DNA from: a virus
Length of the DNA: 64,000 bases
Strand: one strand, 5' to 3'
UHGV virus genome: UHGV-0038496
Position 1 is the first letter of the stretch. Each line of letters starts with the position of its first letter. A program made the position numbers and the translations under genes. The notes under the pieces were generated by a model. It saw only the letters and a program-made list of their open reading frames with translations. It searched no databases and was not told the origin of the DNA. This document shows positions 2,007 to 38,450 of this stretch, in pieces.

Positions 2007-3062
2007 TTATTTGTTAGCTTTTGCAGCGAGAGCTTTCGCTACGTTTTCTGCAAGGATTTCTTCTGCGGATTTTTGAACATCATCCACAGTAGGTTCGCCG
2101 TCTTTACCGTGTTCGGCGGTTGCGAATTCTTCTTTGGTTTTTTCGACTTCGGTTTCAAGTTCAGCAATACGTGCCTGAGCTTTTTCAAGAAGTGCGACAA
2201 CTGCTTCATTAGCTTTTTCTAACATGAAGTCAACCAGCATTTCGTGATCTTCTTCAGTTACAAAGCTAAAAGATTTAGCTTTTTCAAGCATTTCTGCTTT
2301 TTTGAGTTCAACCTGAGCTTTGATGATTGCATCGGCTTCTGCTTGTTTAGCCTGCAATTCTTCAAATTGTTTCAACAGGTCAATGTACTCTTGAGATTTA
2401 GTTACATCTTCCACCGTATTCCCCTCGATATTTGCGGGTTCATTGTTATCAGTATTATCTGGGGTGTTTTCTGGAACTTCTTCCACAGAGTCAACTGGAA
2501 CTACTTCTTCAGGTACAGGTTCCGGTTTCGGCTCTGGTTGAGGTTCAGGTTCCACCACAGGTTCTACTGGGTCTTCGACCGCTTTAATAAGGTTCCCTTC
2601 TGCATCGAAGAGATCAGCGGTTACTTCCTCGAACTTCTGCTGTGCTTTCAGAAGCTCATATTGTTCGACTAAAGTAAGGTCTTTACCTTCCTGAGCAGCT
2701 TTGTGGAGCGTGACAGTGGAGTTTTCTTCTTCCAGCCATTCACGAACCATTTCAGCGTCGGCTTGCGCCCAATCATTGTCTGGGTGTTCTCTAGCGAAGG
2801 CTTCCTCTTCGATTTCAAACCCCAGTAGTGCAGCTAATTTTTTAGCATCATAGGACCACAAACCGAAGAATCTCATGAGGTATTCTTCAAAACTAAGATC
2901 CACCGTGACTTGACGCAGAGCTTTGACGATATCATCCGTCAGTTGTTCTGGTTCAAGATCACTTTTCATCAGCAAAGAGATTGGGCGTTTATTAGCACTG
3001 AAGCCTTGTGCTTCATGGCACAGTGCAATGCCTTTCTCTTGAATTTTGATGGTGTCTGCCAT
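2007..3062 (-). CDS. putative scaffolding protein
   Basis: 351 aa, very acidic, coiled-coil-like, PEPEPQPEPKPEP low-complexity tract; located between protease-like and capsid genes. Confidence 0.45.
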   Translation of the reverse strand: MADTIKIQEKGIALCHEAQGFSANKRPISLLMKSDLEPEQLTDDIVKALRQVTVDLSFEEYLMRFFGLWSYDAKKLAALLGFEIEEEAFAREHPDNDWAQADAEMVREWLEEENSTVTLHKAAQEGKDLTLVEQYELLKAQQKFEEVTADLFDAEGNLIKAVEDPVEPVVEPEPQPEPKPEPVPEEVVPVDSVEEVPENTPDNTDNNEPANIEGNTVEDVTKSQEYIDLLKQFEELQAKQAEADAIIKAQVELKKAEMLEKAKSFSFVTEEDHEMLVDFMLEKANEAVVALLEKAQARIAELETEVEKTKEEFATAEHGKDGEPTVDDVQKSAEEILAENVAKALAAKANK

Positions 3063-3490
3063 TATTCATCGCCCTCTTCATTTTCCACGATTGTGGCCCC
3101 GAAATTGATATCTGTAATCTCACCTGTCTCTTCGTCAACATGACCTGTGCACTGGATGCTTAAGCCACCGACAATGCCAGCTTTCTTAGCTTCCCACAAG
3201 GCTTCGTTGTTGTATTTGACTTTGGCGACCCATGAGCCAGCCTTGATAGGCTGTCCCGTTTCTGCAACAATCACATCGAATTCTTCCTGAATCCAGGTTT
3301 TTTCGATAGTGAATGCGTTGGTGGAGGTGAGATGGAAAAGGTTTTCTCTGGCGATGCCAGCGGCGTATGCCATATCCCAGCTCTCTTTCGCTTTGCGAAG
3401 AGTTTCTTCGGTCATCCATTCGCCGTGAGCATCTTTGGTGTTTGGTTCGTAGATGATCTCGTACGAAATCATCTCTTCAGTTGTAGACAT
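3062..3490 (-). CDS. hypothetical protein (candidate head maturation protease)
   Basis: 142 aa ORF immediately downstream of portal; position typical of prohead protease; no catalytic motif confidently recognised. Confidence 0.3.
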   Translation of the reverse strand: MSTTEEMISYEIIYEPNTKDAHGEWMTEETLRKAKESWDMAYAAGIARENLFHLTSTNAFTIEKTWIQEEFDVIVAETGQPIKAGSWVAKVKYNNEALWEAKKAGIVGGLSIQCTGHVDEETGEITDINFGATIVENEEGDE

Positions 3491-3556: not shown

Positions 3557-5116
3557 TTAATTTTCCATATTTGATACAGAATTATCGCGTGTGGATGACA
3601 TTCTGGACGTGCCATTACCGTTGGTCCCCGCTGCCATACCGTCACCTGACCGACTTACATTCTGACCCAGTATTTGCATTAACTCTTCATTATCAATATC
3701 CTCTTCGACACGGTAGTCAAAACCACCAACTTCAAGGATTTTATTGATAACGCCTGGAGTTTTAGGCAGATAACCAACTGCACCGATACGCTGTACGAAT
3801 TTGGAGAACTCTTCCATGTCAACTTTTTCAGTCAACCCTGGTTTGAGTTTCGGCATATCCTCGTTGGAGAGGTAGATACCGTTCAGCGCCAGCATCTGAG
3901 GAATGAAGTCTTTGTTGAAAGCCTCAACAATAATGTCAATATCACGGTTAACGAAGTGACCATGTAAGGACTGTTTGGACTCAGACAACGAATAAGAACC
4001 AACGTTGTCGTTACCCAAGTTAATGAAACCAGCACCAAATCTATCAAGGATAGCTTTCTTACGTGCATCAACAAGATCTTTGGTGGAGTATTGTTTACCA
4101 GCACCATTGATCCCTTTCAGGTCCATAGAATACTGTTCTTTACCTGATTTATCACGATCCGATGGGAGAATAAAGAAACTCTGTTCACCGGAGTGGGCAT
4201 TTGCAGCATCTGCCATCAGGTTAGCAACCATCTGACCTTCCATAGAGGTGGGGTCGATACTTGCTTTATTCAGAATGTTGGATGGTATTTTCAGCTCAAG
4301 TACACCACCAAGGTCTTTAGAGCAACCAACCACTTCGAGGTTTTCAATCAGCACTTTCTCACGGAAGGATCTGTAACAACCGATCATGGGTGAAACACCT
4401 GCCGGATTGGACTCTGTACCGGAGAGAGTCATGATCATGATTTTCTTAGCAGGAATGAAAATTTCTTCCCCATTGAAGTCTGCCGGGGCAGAAAGCAGTG
4501 GGCCAGCGTATTTACCTTTCTTAGCTCCAGAGAACGCTGCGGGGTCCTGCCATATACCTTCAAGTTTGCGACTGTTTTTATCAAACTGGAACGGGTTACT
4601 GCGGGACAGGCTCGCTTGAGGCCTGAATGCAAACTTGTCGATAACTAATTTACCAGCGTACTCACCTTCCTGTTCACGACGGTAAACTTTCTCAAATACT
4701 GAGAAGCCGTATTCGTTAAAAGTGGCTGCACTTCTTGCGATATCGCGGAGTGTTTGCTGGTTAGCGAGATTACGCAAAGCATAATCAATAAAGGCTGCTG
4801 CTTTCTTAGATTCTTCACTCTCTTCGTTGCAGAGAATTTTGAAATCGTTGAAGGCTTTGGTGATCAGTACGTATTTAGAATCCAGAGCGGTAGCTACTGT
4901 TGAGTCGCATTTCATCGTCTCTACGGTAGCAATAAGGTTGGGCCAACGCAATTCCTCAACCATCATCTGCTGAGATTCAAATTGGATCTGAGCCAGTGCA
5001 CCGGAACCAATCTCTCCCAGACGAACATTATGCACCTGGGCATCTTGATTTCCAGCTTTTTTCACAGCCCTTACTTTGGCTGCTGCGTTGTTTTTCCTAC
5101 GGCTTTTCTTGGACAC
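3557..5116 (-). CDS. portal protein
   Basis: 519 aa ORF directly downstream of terminase large subunit, basic N-terminus and acidic C-terminus; gene order. Confidence 0.55.
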   Translation of the reverse strand: MSKKSRRKNNAAAKVRAVKKAGNQDAQVHNVRLGEIGSGALAQIQFESQQMMVEELRWPNLIATVETMKCDSTVATALDSKYVLITKAFNDFKILCNEESEESKKAAAFIDYALRNLANQQTLRDIARSAATFNEYGFSVFEKVYRREQEGEYAGKLVIDKFAFRPQASLSRSNPFQFDKNSRKLEGIWQDPAAFSGAKKGKYAGPLLSAPADFNGEEIFIPAKKIMIMTLSGTESNPAGVSPMIGCYRSFREKVLIENLEVVGCSKDLGGVLELKIPSNILNKASIDPTSMEGQMVANLMADAANAHSGEQSFFILPSDRDKSGKEQYSMDLKGINGAGKQYSTKDLVDARKKAILDRFGAGFINLGNDNVGSYSLSESKQSLHGHFVNRDIDIIVEAFNKDFIPQMLALNGIYLSNEDMPKLKPGLTEKVDMEEFSKFVQRIGAVGYLPKTPGVINKILEVGGFDYRVEEDIDNEELMQILGQNVSRSGDGMAAGTNGNGTSRMSSTRDNSVSNMEN

Positions 5117-5216: not shown

Positions 5217-6021
5217 TTAAATCATCCTCTTATACATAGAGGGTGAAACAATCTTCGGAATAACACATGGCATCGCAACTTCCTCTTTTTCAAGGTAGTT
5301 GATTGCAGAAGCAATGGAGTCGGCCCAGTCATCTTTACGGCTAAAGGTTGACCGTTCGCCGTTGAATTTCTCCAGCTCTGTCAAAAATGCTTCCAGTGTA
5401 TCAGGGTCGAAACTTGACCTGACAAGCCGAACCATACCCTGTTGGGCAAGGTTGGCAAACGGTGAGAAACGGGTGAGTTTTGATTTGTTAGACGGCATTG
5501 GGTCTTCTTCCACCCTGAAACCTCCAGCAAGGAGTTTGCGGGATGAAGTAAGAAACTCACTCTTACCTGCCTGACCGGGGTCCACAGAGAAGACAATCAC
5601 ACAATCTTCACCATCAAACTCTGCCTGTTTCCTGATAATAACATCGCGTTCACCAGCTTTCTTGCAGAACTTACCGCTCAAGCCTGTGGAATACCTGCCA
5701 TCATCTACGTTTTCAGGACAATAGTCACCAGAGATGTAGTAGTAACCATCGCTATCCTTGCTGACTTTGATACTGGCTGTATAGTCGGGGAATTTGTTGC
5801 CAGAGGTACGTTCTGTACCAGCTTTATCCCACGCTCTTACAGAAACTGCTCCTAGGGGGACATGATCCGCATCTTTCAAGAATGTGCGACTGAAATAGTT
5901 TGCGCCTTCCGGTTTAGCGAACCAGTTACCATAGAGAAGTTGTGCTTTTTCCAGTTCTGGCAGACCTTCTAGGAATGCAAGATATTCTGGGTTATCACGC
6001 AAGCAGATAGGGTTATCGTGT
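5217..6021 (-). CDS. terL: terminase large subunit, exon 3 (C-terminal nuclease domain)
   Basis: Frame contains LLYGNWF-type terminase C-terminal motif; upstream boundary set where conserved intron 3' core ends (approximate). Confidence 0.55.
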
Positions 6022-7009
6022 CCTGGTGTTCAGGGCCGGACGCAACTCCGACCCCCGTTGGTTCCATCCACCGCATCCATGCTCGGCTGCATGTTACCAT
6101 GCAGAGCAGACTATATCACGATCCTGTTTCTCACAGGACCCTTCGCTTTTCGAGCACCATCAGCTTGTGCCCTACTCCCTTTCGGGATAGTCGTTGAACT
6201 ACAATTACCAATCATAATTGTTTGAAATGTAAGTATAAGTTTTCCTTTCCTTGATACTTTTCACTGTACGGTGAGAAACCCCCCACAATCTTGCCACCGC
6301 ACCAACGGATAAGCCTTTTTGTAAATCTTCGCAGATACCAATCACCTTGTGCTCACTTATTCTGTTAGCTGAAGGTATTTCCCTAAAGTGAAACTCCGCA
6401 GAGATATCTGGGTATACTGATCCATTCTTTATACCACTTACAAGGGTTTGATTGACACCGAACATCTGACAGATATCTTTTACCCTTGCACCTTGCTCTA
6501 ATAGCCTGCATATTTCAAGGGCAGTGGCATCATCCAAATACCTGTATTTATTTACATAATCTTTTTTAAGTCCAGTTTCATGGGCGTGGTGTGTGTTTTC
6601 CTCTGGGGTTGTCCACTCAAGGTTCCATGCGGCGTTATTCAACTTATTACCGTCCAAGTGATTTACTTGGGTTTTCACGCTAGGATTATCATTATCAACA
6701 AAAACCTCAGCAACAACTCTGTGAACAAGCACTTGGAACTTTTTGCCGTCCTCACACAGGGAAACCACAGCATAGCCTGTCTTTTTATGCGTAACAGGTT
6801 GAAGGAATTTATTAGAATACAAACTATAAATTCTGCCATCATATGTCACGCAATAGTGTGGGTAACCTAAAAATCCTAAATTCTTCATTTCAAACACTCC
6901 CTACTACAGTTTCGGAAGAATAATTATAGCTGCTGATTATCTGAAAGTCAATCAGATTTTCCAGCAATTAACGAAGTTATTCGACGTGCATTACTGCACG
7001 AAGCCACTA
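6022..7009 (-). mobile_element. group I intron A in terL (contains HNH homing endonuclease gene)
   Basis: Separates two in-frame terL fragments; RNA sense has AACGACUAUCCC and GAUAUAGUCUG (S-element-like) plus CUGCAUGG..ACAUGCAG hairpin; core near-identical to nrdD introns; 5' end approximate. Confidence 0.55.
6205..6897 (-). CDS. HNH homing endonuclease (intron-encoded)
   Basis: 230 aa; HRVVAEVFV...NHLDGNKLNN...NLEW HNH motif; lies inside terL intron A. Confidence 0.7.
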   Translation of the reverse strand: MFEMKNLGFLGYPHYCVTYDGRIYSLYSNKFLQPVTHKKTGYAVVSLCEDGKKFQVLVHRVVAEVFVDNDNPSVKTQVNHLDGNKLNNAAWNLEWTTPEENTHHAHETGLKKDYVNKYRYLDDATALEICRLLEQGARVKDICQMFGVNQTLVSGIKNGSVYPDISAEFHFREIPSANRISEHKVIGICEDLQKGLSVGAVARLWGVSHRTVKSIKERKTYTYISNNYDW

Positions 7010-7333
7010 CAGATTAATGGTTGCACCAATAAAGGCGATAGAGAGGGGTTTTGGAACTATCTCAACACCTTTACCGTTAACATACGTGTACTTCTCGATC
7101 AACTCTTCTGGCGTATCGCCGAAGATAAATTCCCCATCCCTACGGATGAAATAACGCTTAACGCCACACTTACTTTCATCGGGGTAGCCTTCGTCATCAA
7201 GCCACCAACGAACAAGTTTGGCTAAATAATGTTCAGAATCGGGGTTACAGCTGATCACCATTCGCGAAGAGTATTTTGATTTCGACCTCATACGGGAAAT
7301 CAGGTAGTCGATTTGCTCCCATTCGAACTGAGT
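7010..7333 (-). CDS. terL: terminase large subunit, exon 2 (boundaries approximate)
   Basis: Frame encodes ...MVISCNPDSEHY... terminase-like segment flanked by intron-like sequence on both sides; true splice donor probably within 7010-7080. Confidence 0.45.
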
Positions 7334-7966
7334 CGTTTGTGTTCAGGCAAGGTCGCTAATCTTGCCCCGCCACCATGTGGCAGCTGCATGTCTCCATGCA
7401 GACCAGACTATATCTTATAAGCGGTAACAACCGCCTATCCTCCCGTTTCGGCAGTCTTAAAAGACTGTGGGTTTCCCCAGCCGCTTGGCCCTAACGCCCG
7501 TAAGCGATAGTCGTTGAGCACACATCCTATCAGGATGCTTCGCTGCGGATTATCTAAATCAACACACTATTACCATACCTTCGGTCTTTCTCCAAAGCCA
7601 ATATTATGTTACCATAATAGATTGGTGGTGTCAATAGTAAAGATTTCCCCGCAATTAGGGAGGTTTTACGAGAGCTACCAACTAACCCTCGTCAAAGCAT
7701 ATTAAAGTATATTCCACTTTTGTCCCGCCGGATCGCTACTCCGACGCGGTGTGCTAAGACACCCGCCACATATTACCATGTGGAACAGACTATCTCTTCC
7801 ATCCTTGGCGTGCCGTTTGGATCACCAATCGCTTGTGATTCTACTCCCCTACACTCATCGGGGATAGTCGTTACACTCGGTTTCAATTAATCCTTTAACC
7901 GTAGCTCGGTATTGTCCTTTTGTCAAGGAGTTTCACCGAATTAGGCACGAAGGGCAGGTTTGTTTA
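7334..7966 (-). mobile_element. group I intron B in terL (ORF-less, duplicated core; possibly two tandem introns)
   Basis: Two copies of the AACGACUAUC(C/G)C ... (A/G)AUAUAGUCUG ... hairpin ... CCUGAACAC core in RNA sense; no credible ORF; boundaries by analogy with nrdD intron 2. Confidence 0.45.
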
Positions 7967-9079
7967 CCCTTGATGATTCAGCTTATCTTGGACGTATTCC
8001 ATGTGGCAGTACTTGATTACCGCACCATCCCTTTTCTTATTCCACTTACCTGTCTTTGCATCGTAATATGGAAAAGTAAACTTATGATCTTTCTCCCTAA
8101 ATTTTGGCCTCATATATTCAGGAAGATCCAGATACACACTTAGTGCTTTAGGCCACAGACCGCCTTCACCTTCCAGTTGTGGGGTTGTCCTACGGAACAT
8201 CACCACAGAGGTGTTTGGGTCATCTATCATCTTTAGTGGGAGAAGCTGCAAAAGAAAGGATTTACCACTGTTGCCTGTCACTGCAATGCAGTTTTCCAGT
8301 CTGGTGATAAAATAGCCTGTTGTGGTAGCAAAACAATATTTGTAACCATCTTCCGGCTCAAACTCTTCGAACGTTGCATCGTTATTAAGAGCAATCGTAC
8401 CTGCACGTTCGTTGGAGAACACAACTTTGTAACCCTTTTCGAAGAAGATCTGTGCATTGAATCCCAGAGATGATCCGAGGTATTGCAAGAAATCAGCCTG
8501 TTCTTTCGTTGGAACAACGTAGACATGCGAGTCATTACCGTTCAGGTAAATCTCATACCAGATCTGCAACAACTGGCGACGATCACAGTTATACCATTCA
8601 TCTGTGAATTTGTAATATCTTGCCTTTTCTTTCAGCTCTTCGTCAGAAATATCAAGGCCAGTACCACCCATGTTCACAAACGTGGTTTGCATACGCATTG
8701 CCAACTCATCGTTAGCATGTTGTTCGGCCACTTCACTGAAACAAAGTGTACCGTAATCTGTTCCGTCTTCTGGTACATACAGGACTGTGTGCTCGTCAGA
8801 CAATTCCTGACAAATACCATCCTGCACAACCCTGGTCAATTTATCGCATTCCAGCTTAACAAACTCTTCAGGCTGGATAAACATAGCCTTACCAGTTTCT
8901 TTATCAAACTGGAGGATATCTTGACCATCCCAGTCTGAGATTCTGATCCAACCGTTAGGTGTCATCACCTCATGTCGCATTGACAAACAACCCGCTGCCC
9001 CACCAATGATCAGGAAGTCGGCATCATTTTCCAGAATCATTTGTTGTTTACGGGAGCATGGGCCATACATTTTAGCCAT
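7967..9079 (-). CDS. terL: terminase large subunit, exon 1 (ATPase N-terminus, contains intein)
   Basis: N-terminus ...FLIIGGAAG then, after 240 aa insert, SGKSFLLQ: restored Walker A GGAAGSGKS; ATG at 9079 overlaps o-spanin stop. Confidence 0.6.
8270..8989 (-). mobile_element. intein inserted in terL Walker A (P-loop)
   Basis: 240 aa in-frame insert starting with Cys (CLSMRHEVMTPNGWIRISD, intein block-A-like) and ending ...IAVTGN before Ser+1; removal restores Walker A. Confidence 0.6.
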
Positions 9080-10206: not shown

Positions 10207-10282
10207 TGGCACCCCGTACAGGACTCGAACCTGTAACCTATGGCTTAGAAGGCCACTGTTCTTCCATTTGAACTAACGGGGC
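10207..10282 (-). tRNA. tRNA-Arg (anticodon TCT)
   Basis: 76 nt cloverleaf on minus strand: acceptor GCCCCGT/ACGGGGT (G1-U72), D stem GTTC/GAAC, anticodon stem GTGGC/GCCAT with loop CTTCTAA, T arm ACAGG-TTCGAGT-CCTGT, encoded CCA. Confidence 0.8.
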
Positions 10283-35625: not shown

Positions 35626-36162
35626 ATGTCAAAAGCAAGAGAGATAGAGTTAAAATACGGTCAAGAAGGCTTCAATAAATTATTCCTTATAGACCAAAAG
35701 AACAATTTGGTGTGGAAAGTAAATAGAGGTGGTGGAGCAAGAATCGGGGATGTATCTTGCAACAGCAAAGACACTTCTGGTTACTTCATTGTTACAGTAG
35801 ACGGTGTGCATCTGGCAGCTCATAGGGTTATTTGGATTATGAGGCACGGCGATATACCGGATAACATGCAGATTAATCATATAGACCTGTGTAAAACCAA
35901 TAATGCTGACTCTAACCATGAGCTTGTGGCACATGCTACAAATTGCAGGAGGAGAGGTCCCCAGAGGAAAAGCAAAACGGGTTATGGTGGTGTGCATTAC
36001 CGTAAAGATCGGGATAAATGGAGAGTTTGCACAAGAAACGAGAAAGGTGAACGTGTAAACCTTGGGTGCTATGACGATCTCGACATGGCTAATACAGTTG
36101 TTACTTTGTACAAGATAACATTAGAAGCATTATTCGGAGAAGATTTTAAATATTTGTGTTGA
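35626..36162 (+). CDS. HNH-AP2 homing endonuclease (free-standing)
   Basis: HRVIWIMRHGDIP...INHIDLCKTNN HNH motif; AP2-like C-terminal repeat. Confidence 0.6.
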   Translation: MSKAREIELKYGQEGFNKLFLIDQKNNLVWKVNRGGGARIGDVSCNSKDTSGYFIVTVDGVHLAAHRVIWIMRHGDIPDNMQINHIDLCKTNNADSNHELVAHATNCRRRGPQRKSKTGYGGVHYRKDRDKWRVCTRNEKGERVNLGCYDDLDMANTVVTLYKITLEALFGEDFKYLC

Positions 36163-36187
36163 CAACCATCGTCGTTTCTGTTATAGT
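36159..36187 (+). promoter_or_regulatory. sigma70-like promoter
   Basis: TTGACA-17-TATAGT overlapping end of upstream endonuclease gene. Confidence 0.5.
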
Positions 36188-36213
36188 TAGTCCCATCAAG
36201 AGGAGAACGAAGT

Positions 36214-36531
36214 ATGGCAGAAAAGAGATTTCTATCATTGCAAGAAAGACTTAACAAAGTGTATTGCCTTGTCCCTAAAGGTGAAGGTTATATCGTAGCC
36301 AACAAGGGAACACGTAATGCATGGGTCAAGAATCCTGACGGTTCTGTAGAAAGTGTGGCAATCTTGACAAATTCGTCTTACAAGATGTTCACAGAGTCTA
36401 TGGAATATTTCACAAGTGAAGTAAAATTTGTTGGAGAAAAGGTTGACATAGACGGTGTAATCTGGTACATTGTTGACATTGCAGGAATCCCAGAGAACGA
36501 CAACACTTACAAATACGTTGTAGCAAGATAA
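36214..36531 (+). CDS. hypothetical protein
   Basis: 105 aa ORF. Confidence 0.5.
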   Translation: MAEKRFLSLQERLNKVYCLVPKGEGYIVANKGTRNAWVKNPDGSVESVAILTNSSYKMFTESMEYFTSEVKFVGEKVDIDGVIWYIVDIAGIPENDNTYKYVVAR

Positions 36532-36585
36532 GGTGGTGATGCAGTAACGCTACAACAAGTCTACCCTCACATAAGGATCGCTATC

Positions 36586-37599
36586 ATGAACAAATTTTAT
36601 AACAATCGTCGTCAGCCTGAACGCAACGAGAAAGCAGTAGAACCGATGCAGAACAAAATGTTTGGTATGCCTGGTGGCATCATGGAAACATACAGCTATC
36701 CTGCTCCGGTTATGGATCACGTCATCTATATTGATGACTTAGAAGACCTTCAGGACCATCTATCTCGTTTACAACTGATCCGTATGCTGCAACCTGATGA
36801 TTCTATTCGTATTATCATCAATAGCCCAGGGGGTTGCGTTAACATTGCTATGGCTTATCTCCAGGCAATGCGTGAATCTCAGGGCCATGTAGTTACTCAT
36901 GCGGAAGGTATGGTTTGCTCTGCTGGTACTATTTTGTGGTTAGGTGCAAAAGAACGTACTTTGTCTCCGAACTGTGAGTTCATGTTCCACAACTATCAGG
37001 GCGGTACTTTCGGAGACGGTGCTAACATGCACGATCAGGTGACTTTCTTCAAACGTCATTTTGATCGCTTGATTGATAAAATGTATACTGGGGTGTTAAC
37101 TGAAGAAGAGATTGCTAAAATTAAAGGTGGTGGTCAGGTTTGGTTGAACGAAGAAGAGATCGCTGAACGTACTGGTGCAATCATCCTTGACGAAGAGAAT
37201 ATTGCACGTATTCAGGCTGGTCAGCAGGCTTTACCTTTCAACAAAGACCGTGGCGTGTTAGGTGAAGAAGGTTTACCGGAAGTTCATCAATGCAGCTCTA
37301 TGGAAGAACTGGTAAAAGCTATCCATGAAGCGAAAGCAAAAAGCAATGAAGAAGATAAACCGAAAGATGTTTATCTGAATCTGCTGATGGACGATGGTCG
37401 TAACTTTAAACTGAACGTTGCAACGTTAAGTGAAGAAGAGCTGAAAGACTTCACTGTTGCAGAACTTCGTGAGATTCTGGTTCAATTACACGGTGCTTTA
37501 ACTGGTGAAGAAATTGAAGTTAAAGACAACAACCGTGGTCGTCTGGTTAAGAAAATCATCAAAGCTGGCAAAGATCTTCATGATAAATTGCTGGGCTGA
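36586..37599 (+). CDS. ClpP-like serine protease with C-terminal extension
   Basis: ClpP-type motifs around INSPGG and MVCSAG (Ser) in N-terminal half; about 150 aa acidic coiled-coil-like extension. Confidence 0.55.
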   Translation: MNKFYNNRRQPERNEKAVEPMQNKMFGMPGGIMETYSYPAPVMDHVIYIDDLEDLQDHLSRLQLIRMLQPDDSIRIIINSPGGCVNIAMAYLQAMRESQGHVVTHAEGMVCSAGTILWLGAKERTLSPNCEFMFHNYQGGTFGDGANMHDQVTFFKRHFDRLIDKMYTGVLTEEEIAKIKGGGQVWLNEEEIAERTGAIILDEENIARIQAGQQALPFNKDRGVLGEEGLPEVHQCSSMEELVKAIHEAKAKSNEEDKPKDVYLNLLMDDGRNFKLNVATLSEEELKDFTVAELREILVQLHGALTGEEIEVKDNNRGRLVKKIIKAGKDLHDKLLG

Positions 37600-37613
37600 T
37601 TAACATAACGCTA

Positions 37614-37637
37614 AGCCCTCTTCGGAGGGCTTTTTTG
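37614..37637 (+). terminator. rho-independent terminator
   Basis: AGCCCTCTTCGGAGGGCT followed by TTTTTT. Confidence 0.65.
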
Positions 37638-37653
37638 ATCTGGAGATTTATTT

Positions 37654-38172
37654 ATGACCTGTGCTCGCAAGCCAGATAGTGAACGTAAACCCTATGATGA
37701 GTATGTCACCCCACAATATTTAGCGGATGCACTGTTTGAACTGATTGACTTCCCTGACCACTTCACATTCATGGAGCCATGCAGAAACAGTGCAACAGGG
37801 CCGTTCTACAGTAATATGCCGTTAGGTTCAGCCTGGGGTGAGATTCAGGAAGGTGTAGACTACCTTGAAACAGATTATCCACATGTTAACTGCATTGTGA
37901 CCAACCCGCCATTCTCTAAAGCCAAAGAGTTTATTGAGAAAGGCATGGACGATGCTGATGTGGTGATCATGTTACTCCGTCTTAACTTCCTTGAGTCAAA
38001 GACACGTTATGAGTGGTGGCAAACTCACCAACCCACAACGATAATCACCATTGCCAAGCGTCCATCCTTCCAGGAGAACGGCAGAACCGATGGTCAGGCC
38101 TATGCCTTCTTTGTGTGGGATAAACAGGACCTGCTGAAACTTCCACCATTTATGTGGATAGGGCCAGAATAA
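37654..38172 (+). CDS. putative DNA methyltransferase-like protein (NPPF motif)
   Basis: VTNPPFS motif IV-like and EPCRNSATGPF motif I-like; short (172 aa). Confidence 0.35.
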   Translation: MTCARKPDSERKPYDEYVTPQYLADALFELIDFPDHFTFMEPCRNSATGPFYSNMPLGSAWGEIQEGVDYLETDYPHVNCIVTNPPFSKAKEFIEKGMDDADVVIMLLRLNFLESKTRYEWWQTHQPTTIITIAKRPSFQENGRTDGQAYAFFVWDKQDLLKLPPFMWIGPE

Positions 38173-38450
38173 TGAACGCCAGAGATACGCTACACAACCT
38201 AGCCAAAAAAGCTCCTATAACACTCCCAAAAGAGATGAACGAGCTTTATGATGCAGTTGTGGCTACAGCCAAAGAAAAGGCGGTTGCAGGCTTCTTTGGC
38301 TGCTCATTTACGCTGAAAATACCTGAGCATCTGTCAGATTACATTCCTCACATGATAGCTGACCTAAGATCTGGCGGCATATCTGTAGATGTGATCGGGA
38401 TGAATCCAGAAAAAGATGCCGTATTTGTGTTTTTGATGTTGACATGGTAA
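38172..38450 (+). CDS. hypothetical protein
   Basis: Start at ATG overlapping upstream stop (TAATG). Confidence 0.4.
   Translation: MNARDTLHNLAKKAPITLPKEMNELYDAVVATAKEKAVAGFFGCSFTLKIPEHLSDYIPHMIADLRSGGISVDVIGMNPEKDAVFVFLMLTW

Follow-up and report, generated by a model that had tools for sequence, protein, structure and literature searches.

The closest described counterparts of the gene treated here belong to the rV5-like phages, to ICP1 and to the T5-type phage BF23. In ICP1, RNA sequencing assigned the capsid operon gp122-126 to the late genes, with gp125 taken as the maturation protease, and located the middle nucleotide-metabolism genes within gp176-gp211, apart from the late capsid operon. 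The scaffolding of the coat protein by ICP1 gp124 was shown experimentally (PMC10945586). Phage BF23 encodes a 'Clp protease' (ORF45), whose function 'is currently unknown' according to its authors (PMC10644984). Here, we analyzed the gene of a ClpP-like protease located at positions 36586-37599 (+) in a stretch of 64,000 nucleotides from the virus genome UHGV-0038496, which is referred to as the window over its full length. The open reading frame (ORF) extends from an ATG to a TGA codon, encodes 337 amino acids and was judged to be real.

According to sequence comparisons, the product is an ortholog of the PHROG 5410 family, the gene order around it is conserved, and a separate set of head-maturation genes is present in the window. 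It is probable (roughly 0.6) that the gene encodes a non-structural serine protease of the ClpP fold, orthologous to the 'ATP-dependent protease' of rV5-like phages, which would act independently of a host unfoldase and whose C-terminal tail would recruit a partner or substrate.

Orthologs and genomic context of the ClpP-like protease

The profile of PHROG 5410 ('ATP-dependent protease') was matched almost over the full length of the protein (amino acids 22-336, E 1.1e-129), and the sequence identity amounts to 62-63% with the Vequintavirus orthologs of the Escherichia phages V18, JES2013, and PDX, to about 50% with phage 4MG and to about 48% with Klebsiella phages. The protein falls into a phage family that had been annotated before, and does not constitute a new family. 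The Pfam profile CLP_protease matched amino acids 59-166 (E 2.4e-15, 57 bits, cut-off 20), more than 100 solved ClpP chains in the PDB were found as matches (best E 1.8e-10), and a core of the crotonase-like ClpP fold was predicted by AlphaFold for amino acids 44-210, all of which bears out an earlier note on this DNA, in which the N-terminal part had been read as ClpP-type from the letters alone. The searches with hidden Markov models (HMMs) of ClpP/S14 and prohead protease families, which the same note had proposed, gave a divided result: the Pfam profile was passed, and the two NCBIfam models were not. The ClpP equivalog TIGR00493 reached 38.3 bits (cut-off 308.6) and the model for ClpP-related head maturation proteases, NF045542, 55.4 bits (cut-off 120), although the latter was the best match outside the PHROGs. 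Because both cut-offs were missed, the protease, as judged by profile scores, belongs to neither curated family and represents a separate branch of the ClpP fold, already catalogued as PHROG 5410.

A megablast search of positions 36000-38200 against GenBank phages yielded no match; relatives are therefore found only at the protein level. On protein similarity, the phage of the window is a relative of the rV5-like myophages (Vequintavirinae). Since the identity of its proteins to those of Vequintavirus amounts to about 62-78% and no nucleotide match was obtained for the region tested, the comparison suggests an undescribed genus-level relative of the rV5-like phages. Near-identical contigs are present in public sequencing runs (Logan ERR5086527, and a metagenomic contig of 128 kb); the 128-kb contig encodes a protease with 98% identity to that of the window.

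The protease gene is embedded in the gene order nrdG, two small ORFs, phoH, an ORF of 105 amino acids (PHROG 5456), protease and Dam-type methyltransferase. This order, from nrdG to dam, is kept in JES2013 (ORF109-115, with ORF113 as the small upstream ORF and ORF114 as the protease), in W70 (W70_199-206) and in metagenomic relatives whose proteases are 98% and 42% identical. The only difference is a gene for an HNH homing endonuclease (35626-36162, +; PHROG 99, E 8e-40) between phoH and the 105-amino-acid ORF, a recent mobile insertion, given that neither JES2013 nor the 98%-identical relative has it at this site. The 105-amino-acid ORF itself (36214-36531, +; PHROG 5456, E 1.3e-22) lies directly 5' of the protease gene in relatives down to 42% identity. 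Its product may be a functional partner of the protease; no match to it was obtained in Pfam, NCBIfam or PADLOC, and the PADLOC defence models matched neither this ORF nor the protease. The idea of PhoH as an ATPase partner was considered and rejected: PhoH does not belong to the AAA+ unfoldases, and inherited gene order suffices to explain why the two genes are neighbours.

A Shine-Dalgarno sequence (AAGGA, 36573-36577, +) can be read directly from the sequence 8 nucleotides 5' of the ATG. An alternative start at Met21, where the 4MG-like orthologs begin, was rejected and the ATG at 36586 was kept because of this Shine-Dalgarno sequence and the conservation of the N-terminal extension in the closest relatives. 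A sequence scan identified an intrinsic terminator (AAGCCCTC-TTCG-GAGGGCTT followed by a T-run) at 37613-37642 (+), which begins 13 bases past the stop codon of the protease gene and has a stem of 8 bp with five GC pairs and a TTCG loop; a strong terminator behind the gene had already been seen in the earlier note. The protease gene and the small upstream ORF would be transcribed together as a short unit ending at its own terminator, and this presumed two-gene unit sits inside a nucleotide-metabolism block (NrdD/NrdG, PhoH, Dam methylase).

Active site, docking surface and C-terminal tail

For the assignment of functional residues, positions of E. coli ClpP were transferred to the window protease via a profile alignment. 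The landmark E. coli sequence was confirmed to be identical to PDB 3MT6 (mature numbering corresponds to precursor numbering minus 14). Ser112 and His135 are invariant in all 60 homologs, which span 40% to 98% identity, and the same applies to Gly83 of the oxyanion hole. The position equivalent to the catalytic Asp171 of E. coli ClpP is occupied by Gln184 in 55 of the 60 sequences, by Glu in four and by Asp in one, so that the Ser-His-Asp triad of cellular ClpP is not found in its complete form. Moreover, the Asp/Arg motif RDRF of ClpP is replaced by GGQVW.

The replacement of Asp by Gln in most members of the family would fit a weakened or non-catalytic ClpP-like protein, which might sequester a host factor via its C-terminal module or co-assemble with host ClpP rings and disturb them in the manner of ClpR subunits. 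The conserved polar patch described below (R75, E97, H105, E107, T125), which suggests an interaction surface, could be accommodated by the same explanation. We regard it as rather unlikely, because the invariance of Ser112, His135 and Gly83 in 60/60 homologs can hardly be accounted for without catalysis. Glu or Asp occurs at position 184 in a few members, the ICP1 and T5-type relatives keep the Asp, and mixed rings are improbable at an identity of only about 23% to E. coli ClpP.

The pockets in which E. coli ClpP receives the IGF/IGL loops of ClpX and ClpA are formed by residues that we take to be Y60, F82, I90, M92, F112 and L114. In the window protease, these align to R75, E97, H105, E107, T125 and S127, respectively, and the first five are conserved in 58 to 60 of the 60 homologs. 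Hence, polar or charged residues stand in place of the hydrophobic docking pockets of cellular ClpP. In addition, the ClpP segment holding L48/F49 is deleted. As far as the alignment can tell, the surface needed for docking of ClpX or ClpA is lost. The near-invariant polar cluster (amino acids 75-125, encoded at 36808-36960) is conserved so strongly that a function is probable, for instance in subunit contact, partner binding or regulation.

These findings bear on the possibility that the protein is a true ATP-dependent substitute for ClpP, whose rings would bind ClpX or ClpA of the host and divert ATP-dependent degradation. The ClpP fold, the conserved Ser, His and oxyanion Gly83 and the widespread annotation as 'ATP-dependent protease' speak for such a role. 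It nevertheless appears improbable, since the docking residues are exchanged for conserved charged or polar ones and the L48/F49 segment is missing, the N-terminal axial-loop region is unalignable and predicted to be disordered, RDRF is replaced by GGQVW, the cut-offs of the ClpP equivalog HMMs are missed by far and the annotations are homology transfers rather than experimental results. With the docking pockets polar, the L48/F49 segment deleted and the TIGR00493 cut-off missed, the name 'ATP-dependent protease' is doubtful and should be seen as an unverified homology transfer.

The domain layout was derived from an AlphaFold monomer model built on the 60 homologs. The N-terminal region (amino acids 1-43; 36586-36714, +) contains a conserved FG..G..YSYP motif and is predicted to be disordered, with a predicted local distance difference test score (pLDDT) below 50 for amino acids 1-35. 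It is followed by the catalytic core with Ser112, His135 and Gln184 (amino acids 44-210; 36715-37215, +), which is supported by the Pfam and PDB matches and modeled with a pLDDT of about 90. The subsequent linker (amino acids 211-260; 37216-37365, +) was modeled with low confidence (pLDDT 45-58) and is predicted to be disordered; its length differs between homologs, being up to about 40 amino acids longer in some of them. The C-terminal module (amino acids 261-337; 37366-37596, +) consists of a predicted beta-hairpin and two long helices. This compact module of 77 amino acids reached a pLDDT of 85-91 in the full model and, when modeled alone, a pLDDT of 89.5 with a predicted template modeling score of 0.77. 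Thus, the earlier description of the tail as coiled-coil-like has to be replaced by that of a low-confidence linker and a compact hairpin/two-helix module. Its description as acidic holds in part: with 28 acidic and 20 basic residues and an isoelectric point (pI) of 5.06, the tail is mildly acidic, yet less so than the core (pI 4.87).

In a search of 1.84 billion representative proteins, the C-terminal module was confined to the C-terminus of PHROG 5410-type proteins. The tail alone, searched against Pfam and the PHROGs, retrieved its own family (PHROG 5410, E 1.3e-25) and a sub-threshold HeH match; the module may bear a weak resemblance to the helix-extended-helix domains of the HeH, Rho N-terminal and SAP-like kind. 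A Foldseek search against viral predicted structures returned one ortholog and nothing else. No similarity to scaffold proteins was detected in the Pfam, PHROG and representative-protein searches. The core of ICP1 gp211 is homologous to the core of the window protease (hhalign probability 99.7%), whereas no homology emerged when the profiles of the C-terminal module and the gp211 tail were compared (probability 0.4%).

Virion proteomes and the head module

In the virions of the Vequintavirinae phage W70, the capsid protein (PHROG 29), the decoration protein (PHROG 2680), a PHROG 2970 protein, a 'capsid maturation protease' (PHROG 1530) and the portal protein were detected; the ClpP-like ortholog W70_205 was not among the 28 proteins detected (PMC11370258). 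PHROG 1530 is common to the W70 'capsid maturation protease' (W70_136) and to a 142-amino-acid ORF in the head module of the window. In the Certrevirus CB7, the portal-adjacent prohead protease was detected in virions, and with a single exception the virion proteins are encoded in the morphogenesis region (PMC7344957). A ClpP-like protein is not mentioned in the account of the rV5 virion.

A low-copy protease packaged into the virion, which would be ejected into the host or act on non-capsid virion proteins, has little probability in view of these proteomes: it was not detected in W70 virions and is not mentioned for rV5, and the virion proteins of CB7 map, with one exception, to the morphogenesis region. 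The non-head protein BF23 ORF45 was indeed detected in purified virions at low intensity, but the BF23 virions also showed dihydrofolate reductase, which makes cytoplasmic contamination possible, and the BF23 protein is devoid of the tail that characterizes the window family.

The head genes of the window are all encoded on the minus strand. They comprise the portal protein (3557-5116; PHROG 113, Pfam Portal_Mu), an XkdF/S78_2-type prohead protease of 142 amino acids (3062-3490; Pfam Peptidase_S78_2, 60.3 bits, cut-off 24), a scaffold homolog of 351 amino acids (2007-3062; PHROG 2970), a decoration protein (1617-1994) and the major capsid protein (586-1593; Phage_cap_E). The order portal, protease, scaffold, decoration and capsid is the usual one. 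The scaffold homolog shares 28% identity with ICP1 gp124 over 317 amino acids (E 3e-9). The product of 3062-3490 shares 78% identity with rV5-like proteins that carry the name 'prohead protease' or peptidase; with the ICP1 'capsid protease' gp125, the identity is 34%. In an alignment of the window protein with those of a Pectobacterium phage, two Vibrio phages, and Lactococcus, Clostridium and Limnohabitans phages, D20/H22 (DAHG) and G109/S111 (GLS) were invariant across these seven very diverse phages, which provides the His/Ser pair expected of the S78_2 protease class. The earlier statement that this ORF has no clear catalytic motif can therefore not be upheld, and its product is most likely the capsid-maturing protease.

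The 142 amino acids correspond to the longest possible ORF at 3062-3490. Homologs in W70, CB7 and DU_PP_IV are about 190 amino acids long (21 kDa) and carry an extra N-terminal segment, and ICP1 gp125 comprises 278 amino acids. The PHROG of this protease, PHROG 1530, bears the erroneous label 'DNA methyltransferase', a name that is also seen in GenBank records (phage FV3, Lactococcus phage 50901).

Some 27.5 kb separate the ClpP-like gene from the terminase end of the head module, and the portal gene is about 31 kb away, which agrees with the distance of 27 kb from the head genes given in the earlier note. In the window and in every relative examined, the ClpP-like gene is found outside the stretch from portal to scaffold or capsid gene, and with the Peptidase_S78_2 protease in the canonical position it is not the sole or principal prohead protease. 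The ClpP-like protein is thus most probably not the capsid maturation protease. The earlier note had favoured a remotely encoded fusion of prohead protease and scaffold, the core of which would cut capsid or scaffold protein in the procapsid, the tail serving as scaffold or capsid-targeting segment; the best NCBIfam match and several PHROG matches after the own family are indeed named 'head maturation protease, ClpP-related', the 5-amino-acid deletion and the polar pocket positions are shared with true ClpP-type head proteases, and C-terminal extensions are common in the latter. Such a fusion is very unlikely, because the head-maturation gene set is complete, with its own S78_2 protease with invariant motifs and scaffold homolog, and the ClpP-like gene stands in a different block, outside the head module in every relative examined; besides, the 55 bits for NF045542 fall far short of its cut-off (120), the tail is unlike any scaffold and confined to its own family, W70_205 is absent from a virion proteome in which the XkdF-type protease is present, and the ICP1 counterpart is placed in a block outside the late capsid operon.

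Further features were noticed near the head genes. The gene of the large terminase subunit (TerL) is split (5217-9079, -) into a part for the C-terminus (5217-6002) and a part for the N-terminus (7964-9079), between which an ORF for an HNH endonuclease (6205-6897) and a group I intron (7384-7720, -) are located. The intron was matched over the full model of Rfam RF00028 with 80.3 bits. A split TerL has been reported for the Certrevirus phage CB7, too. A single tRNA-Arg gene (anticodon TCT; 10207-10282, -) lies beside the lysis and terminase region.

Proposed function and comparison with described ClpP-fold proteins

Taken as a non-structural protease, the protein would work as follows. The core may assemble into a ClpP-like ring, in which catalysis would be carried out by the Ser-His pair supported by Gln184 in place of Asp. 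By analogy with phage ClpP-related proteases, a host AAA+ unfoldase would not be needed. The flexible linker would tether the C-terminal module, which might bring in a defined partner or substrate, be it a protein of the host or a phage protein that is not part of the virion. A protease aimed at host proteins, which the earlier note had offered as its alternative, is possible and compatible with all results.

Several points weigh against this interpretation. The exchange of the catalytic Asp for Gln could mean a weak or altered activity. The docking-pocket residues are those of the structural literature on ClpP-ADEP and ClpX complexes and were mapped through an alignment of 23-28% identity. 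Absence from virions is weak evidence, because abundance thresholds apply in the proteomes and mature heads have often lost their prohead protease, and in BF23 the T5-type 'Clp protease' ORF45 was found at trace level in virions beside the prohead protease ORF164 (PMC10644984). Expression timing was deduced from ICP1, whose ClpP-like protein has a tail that is not detectably homologous. A sigma-70-like promoter candidate upstream of the two-gene unit (36159-36187, +; TTGACA, spacer of 17 nucleotides, TATAGT, with TG) agrees with the consensus at 11 of 12 positions, but it was not relied on since promoter-like sites in the region are no more numerous than in shuffled sequence. Finally, a literature search turned up no experimental characterization of this protein class.

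On a more tentative level, it is conceivable that the non-head ClpP-like proteins of rV5-like, ICP1 and T5-type phages form a distinct ATPase-independent class that was derived from phage ClpP-type proteases and acts in the cytoplasm in mid-infection. The module of the rV5-like proteins might then target a host protein, such as one involved in defence or associated with the nucleoid, and the polar patch together with Ser-His-Gln might represent a new mode of regulation.

The analysis corrects two misreadings of such genes, as capsid-maturation protease and, despite the 'ATP-dependent' name in databases, as true ClpX/ClpA-dependent ClpP. It also marks out a widespread class of non-head ClpP-like proteases in virulent phages of the rV5-like, ICP1-like and T5-like types, where they occur in addition to a prohead protease. 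Many of these phages serve, or have been put forward, as agents of therapy and biocontrol. Identification of the substrates might uncover a proteolytic step of host takeover or counter-defence, and as targets for mutagenesis the analysis defines Ser112, His135 and Gln184 together with the polar patch and the orphan tail.

Among the known ClpP-fold proteins, those of PHROG 5410 (JES2013 ORF114, 4MG, W70_205) agree with the window protease in their three-part architecture and in their gene neighbours. The differences are confined to sequence divergence and to the HNH gene inserted upstream in the window. Cellular ClpP (E. coli, PDB 1TYF/3MT6; TIGR00493) shares the fold, the Ser, the His and the oxyanion Gly, and a helix E handle is predicted for the window protease. 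In contrast to cellular ClpP, the window protease has an extra linker and C-terminal module, no alignable axial loops, Gln184 and no hydrophobic docking pockets.

For the comparison with other phages, the window protease was aligned with Gordonia phage DirtyBoi gp5, the protein of Vibrio phage K278, clpP of Clostridium phage phiSM101, ICP1 gp211, the T5-like version and E. coli ClpP. The deletion of five residues and the polar pocket positions are common to all aligned phage ClpP-like sequences, which suggests a kinship with phage ClpP-related proteases and not a recent capture of a host clpP gene. The groups differ in the third residue of the triad: E. coli ClpP, ICP1 gp211 and the T5-type protein have Asp at this position, the three head proteases have Glu, and the window family has Gln. 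The ClpP-type head proteases (phiSM101 clpP, DirtyBoi gp5) have the same fold, aligned Ser and His residues, the L48/F49 deletion and polar docking positions, and are, like the window protease, presumably ATPase-independent. The genes of DirtyBoi gp5, K278 and phiSM101 clpP lie between those of the portal and the capsid protein, whereas the window gene does not; furthermore, the window protease has Gln instead of Glu and an unrelated, family-specific tail, and its phage encodes another kind of prohead protease.

The head module of ICP1 (TerL, portal, a hypothetical protein, protease gp125, scaffold gp124, decoration gp123 and coat gp122) has the same order as that of the window, and the protein sizes are nearly equal between the two modules (gp127-gp122 in ICP1). 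ICP1 gp211, a protein of 326 amino acids, has an acidic linker and a tail not detectably homologous to that of the window protease, and it keeps the Asp. Its gene is located downstream of nrdAB and phoH, and the window gene likewise follows phoH. The T5-type proteins (BF23 ORF45; Sugarlandvirus, about 203 amino acids) keep the Asp, too, and have no tail. The presence of a non-head ClpP-like gene beside a separate prohead protease in ICP1-like and T5-like phages hints at a broader class: in ICP1, T5/BF23 and Sugarlandvirus, as in the window, the ClpP-like gene is found among early or middle metabolism genes.

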